A stretch of DNA of 49,158 nt from Candidatus Thorarchaeota archaeon (GTDB lineage: Archaea; Asgardarchaeota; Thorarchaeia; Thorarchaeales; Thorarchaeaceae). The notes below the pieces were generated by a model, which was not told where the DNA came from, made no database searches, and saw nothing but the letters and a program-made list of their open reading frames with translations. Location of the stretch: assembly GCA_016839605.1 (NCBI GenBank), contig JAEOTX010000096.1:1-49158 (forward strand), in the 5' to 3' direction. Within the stretch, counting starts at the first letter, position 1. Every line of letters starts with the position of its first letter. Position numbers and translations under genes: made by a program. This document shows, piece after piece, positions 612 to 4,663 of the stretch.

Positions 612-713
612 TATGCATAATACCGAATAAAGAGAAAGGATGGAAGGAGCGCGACCAACGCACTCTTGCGGTGTGTCACACCCAGCCCATTTCATTTGAG
701 GTCGTGCCTTCAT
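612..713 (-). repeat. Degenerate direct-repeat copy of the vhuU 3' SECIS element
   Basis: agagaaaggatggaaggagcgcgaccaacgcactcttgcggtgtgtcacacccagcccatttcatttgaggtcgtgccttcat aligns with the 1477-1581 copy; it overlaps the TGA stop of the nucleotidyltransferase gene. Confidence 0.85.
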
Positions 714-1276
714 TCTCGGTTCTTTATCTTGGCAGTAGATTCTTTCAAGAATCTCTTCCAATCATCAAGAATTTTCAACTTCTTGCACGTCGATTCGATA
801 TACGCAATATCAAGTTGTGGTTGTCTGCGAGAGAGAATGCCCAGCGCATCTCGAAGATCTTGTTCACCATGAAAAAGGATCTTGTTGATTAACGTGTCTT
901 CAGCTGTACCAAGTTTGATAGTTGTATTGAACAGCTCTATTGCAATTGCACGATCCAGAGTCATTCTGTCGAATTGGGAATTCACACCCTGAATGTCAAG
1001 CCTAAGGAGACTATCAGCAAAGAATATGGTGCTGTGTGATTTCTCTCTCAATGCGACCCTCAAATCCTCAACATTTGCATCAAACCCTTTCGAGTTAAGG
1101 AATTCGACGAAACCAGGAATCTCATCATCATTGCTTTGAATTATCAAATCAATATCTACTGTAGTCCGAGGAACACCGTGATACATCACTGCAACACCTC
1201 CTACCACAACGTAATCAATTTCACTTTCATTTAGATAAGAACATAATATTCGCAGAATCTCCGGGAACTCTTCCAT
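710..1276 (-). CDS. Nucleotidyltransferase family protein (DUF6036/MenT/AbiEii-like toxin candidate)
   Basis: YVVVGGVAVMYHGVPRTTVDIDL (GG...R.T.D.D NTase motif), EDTLINK and QDLRDA; ATG at 1276 preferred over GTG at 1288. Confidence 0.8.
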   Translation of the reverse strand: MEEFPEILRILCSYLNESEIDYVVVGGVAVMYHGVPRTTVDIDLIIQSNDDEIPGFVEFLNSKGFDANVEDLRVALREKSHSTIFFADSLLRLDIQGVNSQFDRMTLDRAIAIELFNTTIKLGTAEDTLINKILFHGEQDLRDALGILSRRQPQLDIAYIESTCKKLKILDDWKRFLKESTAKIKNRE

Positions 1277-1277
1277 C

Positions 1278-1430
1278 TCAGTTCCCACCTGCTACACGTA
1301 AAGCTAAAGCTGAGAGTTTTAAACCCATTAATAAAGTTTCAAGTCCTGTGAATCGTCTTGCCTGCATTGCAGTTCTAATCTGATCATGGTCTCTACGAAG
1401 CTTCACTTGTTCTGCAATGGAGCTTGTCAT
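1278..1430 (-). CDS. Small (50 aa) helical protein, putative antitoxin partner of the nucleotidyltransferase; absent from the ORF track
   Basis: Read by hand: MTSSIAEQVKLRRDHDQIRTAMQARRFTGLETLLMGLKLSALALRVAGGN*; its TGA lies 1 nt before the NTase ATG, a typical two-gene module layout. Confidence 0.6.
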   Translation of the reverse strand: MTSSIAEQVKLRRDHDQIRTAMQARRFTGLETLLMGLKLSALALRVAGGN

Positions 1431-1506
1431 TCTTTTCTCTCATTTGTGGTATATCTACTTCGCTCATATATTCTACTATGCAAAATTCGGAGAAAAGAGA
1501 AAGGAT

Positions 1507-1606
1507 GGAAGGAGGTGCGACCAACGCACCCTTGCGGGGTGTGTCAGACCCGGCCCGTTTCGTTTACGGCCGTGCCTTCATCCGCCGCCGGTCACTAGCT
1601 CCTTCC
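1507..1606 (-). promoter_or_regulatory. Eukaryote/Asgard-type SECIS element of vhuU
   Basis: Minus strand AUGAA-GGCACGGCCGU-AAACGAA-ACGGGCCGGGUC-UGAC: kink-turn core, 11-nt helix II arm, AAA apical loop; closed by GUGACCGGCG/CGUUGGUCGC and GGAAGGAG/CUCCUUCC helices. Confidence 0.85.
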
Positions 1607-1742
1607 TGACTATCTCGCGACACTCCCCGTCATCGTCTTCCTCAACGACGACGAAATGAGCGCCGCATGATAGTCAGCAGTCGTAACACCGCACAACCAT
1701 CTCGATGAGGTTGAGCAGTCCTTCCGGTATTTCTTCCGTCAT
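1578..1742 (-). CDS. vhuU: Selenocysteine-containing [NiFeSe]-hydrogenase subunit VhuU (split C-terminus of the large subunit); Sec UGA at 1676-1674
   Basis: Translated by hand: MTEEIPEGLLNLIEMVVRCYDC-U-LSCGAHFVVVEEDDDGECREIVRKELVTGGG*. It matches the VhuU/L2 motif EMVxRxYDP(C/U)xSCxxH, directly follows vhuA (which lacks L2), and has a SECIS downstream. Confidence 0.93.
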
Positions 1743-3992: not shown

Positions 3993-4226
3993 TTAGACCT
4001 CCCTCAGTTTGAAGACGAGCTCATGATGCTCCTCTCCGGCGATCTCTACATCGCCCCATCGAAGAAGGCCCAGAAGATTCCACATGAGCATCTTCTTGTC
4101 CATCTCTGTCTTTTCACCGATTACGCTGACACTGGCTGGGCCTTCCTTGAGCGAATCAAGGATGGATTTTCGCTGCCGTGTCACATCAGCATAGTTCTGG
4201 TCAAAGTACGTCGTGAACTCTGTCAT
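3993..4226 (-). CDS. Small winged-helix-like protein in the mvh operon
   Basis: ILDSLKEGPASVSVIGEKTEMDKKMLMWNLLGLLRWGDVEIAG wHTH pattern; paralog of 14716..15063; ATGA overlap with the mvhD stop (ORF track start 4232). Confidence 0.65.
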   Translation of the reverse strand: MTEFTTYFDQNYADVTRQRKSILDSLKEGPASVSVIGEKTEMDKKMLMWNLLGLLRWGDVEIAGEEHHELVFKLREV

Positions 4227-4663
4227 ACCCACGACCTCCCTATTGGACCAACTTCTTTCACTTGTTCTATCAACTTCGTCACTCCGTCTGCGAATATCTG
4301 GGCCTCAGAGGCACTCGCCCATTGAAGTCGAATTCGCCTCGGATCGATACCAGCTTGCTTGACTGCCTCCGCCATCACTGCCCATCTTGCTCGTAGTTTG
4401 AGATTGCCTGATGTGTAATGACAGTCTCCAGGATGACATCCAGATACCAGCACGCCATCAGCGCCTTGATCTAGGGCACTCAGGATGAACTCTGTGTCTA
4501 TCCGGCCTGTGCAGTTCACCCGGATGATACGAGCGTTTGGCGGATATTGGATCCTGCTCGTTCCAGCCAAGTCGGCTCCGGCATAGGAACACCAATTGCA
4601 GCAAAATGCGACAATTCGAGGTTCCCATTCAGAATCGGTTTTTGCTTTTGATGAAGTAGTCAT
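4223..4663 (-). CDS. mvhD: Hydrogenase iron-sulfur subunit MvhD ([2Fe-2S])
   Basis: PRIVAFCCNWCSYAGADLAG, VNCTGR, GADGVLVSGCHPGDCHY, WASASEA. Confidence 0.95.
   Translation of the reverse strand: MTTSSKAKTDSEWEPRIVAFCCNWCSYAGADLAGTSRIQYPPNARIIRVNCTGRIDTEFILSALDQGADGVLVSGCHPGDCHYTSGNLKLRARWAVMAEAVKQAGIDPRRIRLQWASASEAQIFADGVTKLIEQVKEVGPIGRSWV

Follow-up and report, generated by a model that had tools for sequence, protein, structure and literature searches.

A putative eukaryote-like SECIS element with a conserved third helix overlaps the vhuU stop codon in a Thorarchaeota archaeon

We identified a conserved, co-varying three-way junction, tied to selenocysteine (Sec)-type genes, at the end of the vhuU gene (1606-1507, minus strand) in the window, which is the whole 49,158-nt stretch of Thorarchaeota DNA analysed. 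From its structure, conservation and linkage to Sec-type genes we infer factor binding and recoding: the element is very probably the SECIS, of the Asgard 'eukaryote-like' class, for Sec insertion at the vhuU UGA 1676-1674. It covers the last nine vhuU codons and 71 nt beyond them. What the analysis adds concerns the side hairpin, described as 'extra' in the initial annotation, which on comparative grounds appears to be an integral, conserved third helix of the Asgard SECIS. The vhuU gene and its 3' region carry the following features.

1578-1742, minus strand: vhuU, encoding the small Sec-containing C-terminal piece of a split [NiFeSe] hydrogenase large subunit, downstream of hdrA-vhuD-vhuG-vhuA
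1676-1674, minus strand: Sec codon UGA of vhuU, at the Ni-ligand position of the DxUxxCxxH motif
1607-1677, minus strand: hairpin H1 within the vhuU coding sequence, from the Sec UGA to the start of P1a, predicted by folding
1507-1606, minus strand: complete three-way junction of the putative SECIS, from folding, minimum free energy (MFE) folds of orthologs, covariation and covariance model (CM) matches
1606-1599, minus strand: P1a 5' strand GGAAGGAG, codons R-K-E, with its partner CUCCUUCC at 1514-1507
1595-1586, minus strand: P1b 5' strand GUGACCGGCG, codons L-V-T-G-G, with its partner CGUUGGUCGC at 1526-1517
1581-1578, minus strand: AUGA, 5' half of the predicted G.A/A.G core, whose UGA is the vhuU stop codon
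1577-1568 with 1555-1546, minus strand: P2 upper stem, AGGCACGGCC with GGCCGGGUCU, 9 bp and one A.G mismatch
1567-1556, minus strand: apical loop GUAAACGAAACG, 12 nt, GUAAA..., with the conserved AAA inside
1546-1543, minus strand: UGAC, in which GA (1545-1544) forms the core's 3' half and C occupies the invariant -1n position
1541-1527, minus strand: P3 side hairpin CACCC-CGCAA-GGGUG, consensus loop YGCRA, on the non-bulged strand, where it follows the core GA and precedes the P1b 3' strand
1478-1506, minus strand: pyrimidine/T-rich tail 3' of the putative SECIS, seen in the sequence and conserved within the genus
628-712, minus strand: degenerate repeat of the 3' portion of the SECIS, starting at AUGA, found as a CM match of 21 bits

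The vhuU gene begins 11 nt past the end of vhuA and follows hdrA (6429-4663), vhuD/mvhD (4663-4223), vhuG (3990-3067) and vhuA (3070-1754), all on the minus strand. Pfam matches of its neighbours are to NiFeSe_Hases, Oxidored_q6 and FlpD. Translated with TGA as U, the gene yields a product of 54 residues (...RCYDC-U-LSCGAH...VTGGG; in full MTEEIPEGLLNLIEMVVRCYDC-U-LSCGAH-FVVVEEDDDGECREIVRKELVTGGG). Relatives of VhuA with 91-94% identity are Candidatus Thorarchaeota MAGs, and the host genome is an 80% complete MAG of 3.08 Mb in 259 contigs. It encodes SepSecS (E = 3e-111), tRNA-Sec and a Sec-containing SelD, and a search of it for SelA scored below the cut-off; the host is therefore an Asgard archaeon with an archaeal/eukaryal Sec pathway.

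The MFE structure computed with RNAfold is exactly the three-way junction with P1a, P1b, P2 and P3. Its free energy over a 116-nt stretch is -50.4 kcal/mol, against -39.2 +/- 3.3 kcal/mol for dinucleotide shuffles (z = -3.4), and none of 200 shuffles was as stable; the fold is more than chance. The initial annotation had placed AUGA, arm, loop and UGAC correctly, but its 'AAA loop' is a 12-nt loop holding a conserved AAA, and its 11-nt arm is an arm of 10 nt with one mismatch. Its reading that the core UGA (1580-1578, minus strand, within AUGA 1581-1578) terminates vhuU holds, as does the spacing of about 95 nt that it gave: AUGA begins 95 nt after the Sec codon. The lower helices likewise pair coding sequence with the 3' UTR, and CACCC-CGCAA-GGGUG makes a three-way junction, as described there. 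Upper stem and loop lie within the limits of Asgard eSECIS-like structures (7-15 bp with at most two mismatches, a loop of 8-20 nt, adenines near the 5' end of the loop). The T-rich tail at 1478-1506 is likely, by inference from its sequence, to be the transcript end.

Loci of vhuA-vhuU were gathered from 60 related genomes and the GTDB genome collection, and vhuU orthologs were found in more than 60 Asgard loci. Sec-type vhuU is spread across Thor, Loki/Prometheo, Hel, Hod, Jord, Atabey and other Asgard lineages, and in most orthologs the three-way junction is the MFE fold. We aligned 22 Thorarchaeota vhuU orthologs with plain MAFFT (alignment A1), with slid partners and 500 shuffles as controls. 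In this alignment 88% of cells were paired, compared with at most 51% when the partners were slid, and 12 pairs showed double changes. None of the 500 shuffles reached either the fraction of paired cells or the covariation score, and one reached the count of double-change pairs; since the vhuU sequences are phylogenetically related, such shuffle figures are not probabilities. ATGA and GAC (G68, A69, C70) are invariant and the AAA of the apical loop nearly so among these 22 sequences, so that the core and loop adenines on which the initial annotation had staked its reading are kept in orthologs.

With a covariance model built from the 22-sequence alignment, the element was found behind vhuU in other Asgard classes as well. 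The resulting CM-based alignment (A5) comprises 50 Asgard sequences, from Thor, Loki, Hel, Jord, Atabey and other lineages. Its fit to the model inflates the pairing counts and its sequences are related, so that its figures are on the generous side; with that qualification, 89% of cells were paired compared with 72% in shuffles, compensatory double changes occurred in 29 of 30 pairs, and none of 500 shuffles was as high on any of five measures. The AUGA/GA core is conserved in the 50 sequences. By helix, and under the same inflation, double changes affect all eight pairs of P1a (86-89% of cells paired in the two alignments), all ten of P1b, all eight modelled pairs of P2 and three of the four pairs of P3 (98% of cells paired). 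The compensatory changes in P1a and P1b bear out the pairing of coding sequence with the 3' UTR, and the side hairpin is conserved. The exchanges are also visible in the raw letters: Loki has GUUGGCUU/AAGCCAAC in P1b in place of GUGACCGGCG/CGUUGGUCGC of Thor, and UAUCCAAU/AUUGGAUA and CCCUUGCAUGGG in helices where the Thor letters differ entirely. Further P1b variants are CAGACCG/CGGUCUG (locus L012) and GUGC-GGGCG/CGCCC-GCGC (locus L011). For the Thor vhuU alignment RNAalifold preferred an alternative that replaces P1b and P3 by a pairing of GGCGG with CCCCGC. We rejected it because it is accompanied by one-sided C-to-U changes only, as opposed to the double changes in P1b and P3.

The same pairing could arise as a by-product of coding constraint on the VhuU C-terminus combined with recent ancestry, with no RNA function. 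The 5' strands of P1a and P1b do encode the conserved ...RKELVTGGG, and many of the sequences are close relatives, yet the non-coding 3' strands, P2 and P3 co-vary across otherwise unalignable lineages, and Cys-type genes encode similar C-terminal peptides with no such structure. We consider this explanation the least credible of those weighed, with hardly any probability left to it. The Cys-type genes are vhuU homologs from Odin and Sigyn with TGT (Cys) at the Sec position; in one Odinarchaeota and one Sigynarchaeum MAG such a gene ends in TAA, has no AUGA motif and gives no CM match. VhuA paralog loci, taken up as further Cys-type controls, had no vhuU downstream.

Two side observations concern the vhuU loci themselves. 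In L032/L094, from a Loki-type MAG, an in-frame TAA following ...VVDE interrupts vhuU early, with the downstream frame and SECIS kept; possible explanations are a sequencing error, a pseudogene and a shortened form. Asgard-type vhuA-vhuU with SECIS also occurs in L084 and L076, on contigs labelled 'Nanopelagicaceae bacterium' and 'Thermoproteota archaeon', which are probably mis-binned or mislabelled.

The position of the stop codon within the core is a recurrent property of these genes. Among 66 unique Sec-type vhuU 3' ends, 58 have an A-UGA stop and five U/C-UGA, one of the latter (L100) lying outside the core. The Sec codon stands exactly 84 nt before the stop in 63 of the 73 Sec-type loci counted; in the group of the present sequence a 12-nt insertion brings this to 96 nt. 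The core needs UGA and the stop codon is thereby fixed, which fits the near-invariance of the vhuU stop. In the model that we favour, a ribosome at the Sec UGA 1676 would have the junction 70 nt downstream and still folded, and the intact junction would recruit the Sec-specific elongation factor with Sec-tRNA(Sec). Once the ribosome reached UGA 1580, the mRNA channel would enclose the core together with both lower stems, the SECIS would be gone and the codon would be read as stop. The proposal that the terminating ribosome melts the SECIS and thereby lets the second UGA act as a stop codon is mechanically sound as a model and had already been put forward by Mariotti 2016 (PMC4989117), and a limit on throughput to one ribosome at a time, which the overlap would impose, is plausible.

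Alternatively, the SECIS is real and some ribosomes pass the second UGA, by Sec insertion or readthrough, adding a 33-codon tail up to a UAG that would be removed with the C-terminal extension. The C-terminal extension of [NiFe] hydrogenases is normally removed by a maturation protease. The residues past ...CGAH form such an extension, so extra residues would be harmless. Moreover, 63 of the 66 unique sequences keep a UGA stop, which lies in the core in every case except one, so that a tighter stop is barred. A SECIS unwound by the ribosome, however, cannot act in cis, and the minimal UGA-SECIS distance in eukaryotes opposes recoding at this position (PMC4989117, citing Martin 1996). Passage of the second UGA is therefore unlikely in our judgement, and termination there remains the preferred reading.

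The coding sequence contains a second structure, H1, which runs from the Sec UGA to the base of the junction. Among 32 Thor sequences 89.6% of H1 cells are paired and five pairs show double changes, and none of 1000 synonymous-codon resamplings was as stable (z = -5.1). H1 (1677-1607) could accordingly be the real recoding signal, like a bacterial SECIS or eukaryotic SRE, leaving the 3' junction as a terminator or mRNA-stability element; it starts at the Sec UGA, is very stable, exceeds the synonymous-codon expectation and has some compensatory changes within Thorarchaeota. Against this, Sec synthesis in the host is SepSecS-based with SelA below the cut-off, H1 is not conserved in the Sec-type vhuU of Loki, Hel and Jord, and selD has no comparable hairpin after its Sec codon. 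The 3' junction, by comparison, was present with all Sec-type vhuU, selD and vhuD genes examined and absent from Cys-type genes. A primary role of H1 in recoding is thus very improbable. Since H1 is confined to Thorarchaeota vhuU and selD has no equivalent, it appears to be an accessory element specific to Thorarchaeota vhuU rather than the SECIS, and it may serve as a spacer or pausing element.

The initial annotation had suggested a comparison with other selenoprotein genes of the genome, and selD carries the same architecture. Host selD (G000 contig C192, L036:1033-2043, plus strand) has Sec as residue 7, and its element extends to 2140. The gene ends in CCA-UGA, followed by a stem, GA-GGA, the hairpin CCGUC-GCGA-GCGG and CCAGUCUC, which pairs with the coding GAGACUGG just 5' of the stop. 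This SECIS is of type II and lies 990 nt after the Sec UGA, again with the stop inside the AUGA core. Across 21-25 Thorarchaeota selD sequences, P1 reads GAGACYG/CRGUCUC, the core is [A/G]UGA with the stop, and the P3 loop is YGCRA. RNAalifold independently predicts the selD three-way junction; in the MAFFT alignment pairing extends to 94.5% of cells, and double changes affect 13 pairs, four of them among the five P3 pairs. In selD the 3-bp stem UCC/GGA is followed by a 3-nt bulge (C-A/G-U) and by G.A/A.G, forming a textbook kink-turn. A third family is represented by Loki-type vhuD with two in-frame UGAs (L176, L180), in which the order is AUGA, P2, an 11-nt loop, GA, P3 and P1. With its presence in vhuU, selD and vhuD, P3 belongs to the SECIS of at least three Asgard gene families and looks like a general module.

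Searches with existing and newly built models differed in reach. The expectation of a match to a eukaryotic SECIS covariance model was not borne out: an Rfam search of 1300-1800 at E <= 10 returned no SECIS family and chance miRNA/snoRNA matches only, and Rfam at the gathering score gave no SECIS family over the whole window. A scan of 1760-1200 (minus strand) with Huang's loose model for the methanococcal GAA_A SECIS, an asymmetric bulge between a lower stem and a G-C-rich upper stem of 3-6 bp, found nothing, and together with the AUGA...GA core and A-rich loop this upholds the earlier assignment to the eukaryotic rather than the methanococcal type. Searched against the whole host genome, our model R1 recovered only the vhuU element and its degenerate copy; it is too vhuU-specific for finding other SECIS elements. 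Scanning the host genome with a home-made AUGA-helix-GA pattern gave 30 matches, vhuU among them.

Two further matches of the pattern scan are speculative and were set aside, being backed by neither fold z-scores nor Pfam. The first, on G000 contig C117 (L130:611-1570, plus strand), is a 289-codon frame with one in-frame UGA in the context C-A-S-U-G; it ends in A-UGA followed by a SECIS-like stem and an AGCAA-loop hairpin, has no Pfam match and has a fold z-score that is not significant. On sequence features it would be a candidate unannotated selenoprotein. The second, on G000 contig C233 (~4190-4400, minus strand, in L131), consists of AUGA, a 9-bp stem, a GUAAAGCAAUGC loop, UGAG and a side hairpin. 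This SECIS-like element lies 66 nt past a small membrane-anchored Thr-rich ORF with an in-frame UGA in CTVG-U-PPP.

The degenerate copy at 628-712 is 84% identical to 1490-1581 and sits at the end of a nucleotidyltransferase gene; its P2 and P3 pairs are broken and it has no P1 5' strands. From 612 to 1581 (minus strand), two direct repeats of the 3' portion of the SECIS flank a 50-aa ORF and a DUF6036/AbiEii-like nucleotidyltransferase. A different Thor genus has this cassette too, again accompanied by a SECIS repeat of its own (L054:3062-4311), and at L005:80-1356 a hydrolase gene lies between two SECIS-repeat copies. The 3' end of vhuU looks like a recurrent insertion site.

Much of the vhuU element agrees with published Asgard SECIS. 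The lokiSECIS of Mariotti 2016 has AUGA, a 9-bp stem, an 11-nt A-rich loop and GA (AA in VhuU), is missed by standard tools and lies close to stop codons, and in Loki VhuU.1 the AUGA motif serves as the stop codon; the minimal-distance argument is made in the Discussion of that paper (PMC4989117). Huang 2024 catalogued 1224 eSECIS-like structures, restated the stop overlap and reported a G[U/G]AAA loop and a YGG/CYR lower stem for most Thorarchaeia frhA (PMC11227280), which we take to mean the hydrogenase large-subunit family. The vhuU element shares with these Asgard structures the AUGA...[G/A]A core, an upper stem of about 9 bp, the A-rich loop, the position at the gene end and the use of AUGA as the VhuU stop, and its GUAAA loop and P1b match the Thorarchaeia frhA pattern. 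The eukaryote-like core, the AUGA/stop overlap, the Thorarchaeia loop and the minimal-distance argument are therefore already published. The vhuU element differs from the published structures in that the 3' side of the 'internal loop' is the co-varying P3 hairpin, making a three-way junction, and in that Thorarchaeota vhuU adds the hairpin from the Sec UGA to the SECIS base. The main texts of Mariotti 2016 and Huang 2024, their supplementary figures aside, do not mention the third helix or the junction; as presented in those main texts, the two-stem model of the Asgard SECIS is incomplete.

With the eukaryotic SECIS (RF00031) the vhuU element has in common the AUGA/GA non-Watson-Crick quartet at the base of helix II, the unpaired loop adenines and 3' action at a distance, but it has no Rfam match, a shorter upper stem, an overlap with coding sequence and stop, and a third helix. 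With the Methanococcales/Methanopyrus SECIS it shares an archaeal host, the 3' position and the vhuU gene family; that class has a GAA_A bulge and a 3-bp G-C upper stem, whereas the vhuU element lacks both and has an AUGA/GA core. Bacterial SECIS and eukaryotic SRE lie at the UGA, as H1 does, but H1 is lineage- and gene-specific, and the Sec synthesis route here is not of the SelA type that accompanies the bacterial SECIS.

The third helix also bears on what might bind the element. What defines a k-junction is a third helix placed on the non-bulged strand, across from the loop (PMC10573300). In vhuU and selD the predicted fold has tandem G.A and a third helix in that same place, a likeness of secondary-structure topology only (comparison with Wang et al. 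2014 and Li et al. 2023, PMC10573300). Compared with k-junctions, the bulged strand carries a longer loop, of 6 nt in vhuU and of 3 nt plus the 3-bp UCC/GGA stem in selD. Two k-junctions have been tested with L7Ae; neither was induced to fold, and the protein is expected to be denied access (PMC10573300); by analogy, L7Ae/L30 binding to the vhuU element, if it is folded as a k-junction, would be doubtful. No SBP2 is known in archaea, and from Asgard archaea it is reported absent (PMC4989117, PMC9723677). A broader reading, possible but tentative, is that Asgard SECIS are k-junction-type three-way junctions instead of kink-turn hairpins with two helices. P3, with the YGCRA loop of vhuU and selD, would then be indispensable, for recognition or for folding, to the reader that replaces SBP2, and the eukaryotic SECIS would have arisen by losing P3.

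Core and stop overlap being already known, the vhuU element adds no new principle. Asgard elements are held to link the archaeal SECIS to the eukaryotic system, and we know of no archaeal SECIS-binding protein. The topology of P3 cautions against presuming L7Ae-type binding, and the third helix with its conserved loop, present in three gene families and several Asgard lineages, offers a handle for finding the SECIS reader.
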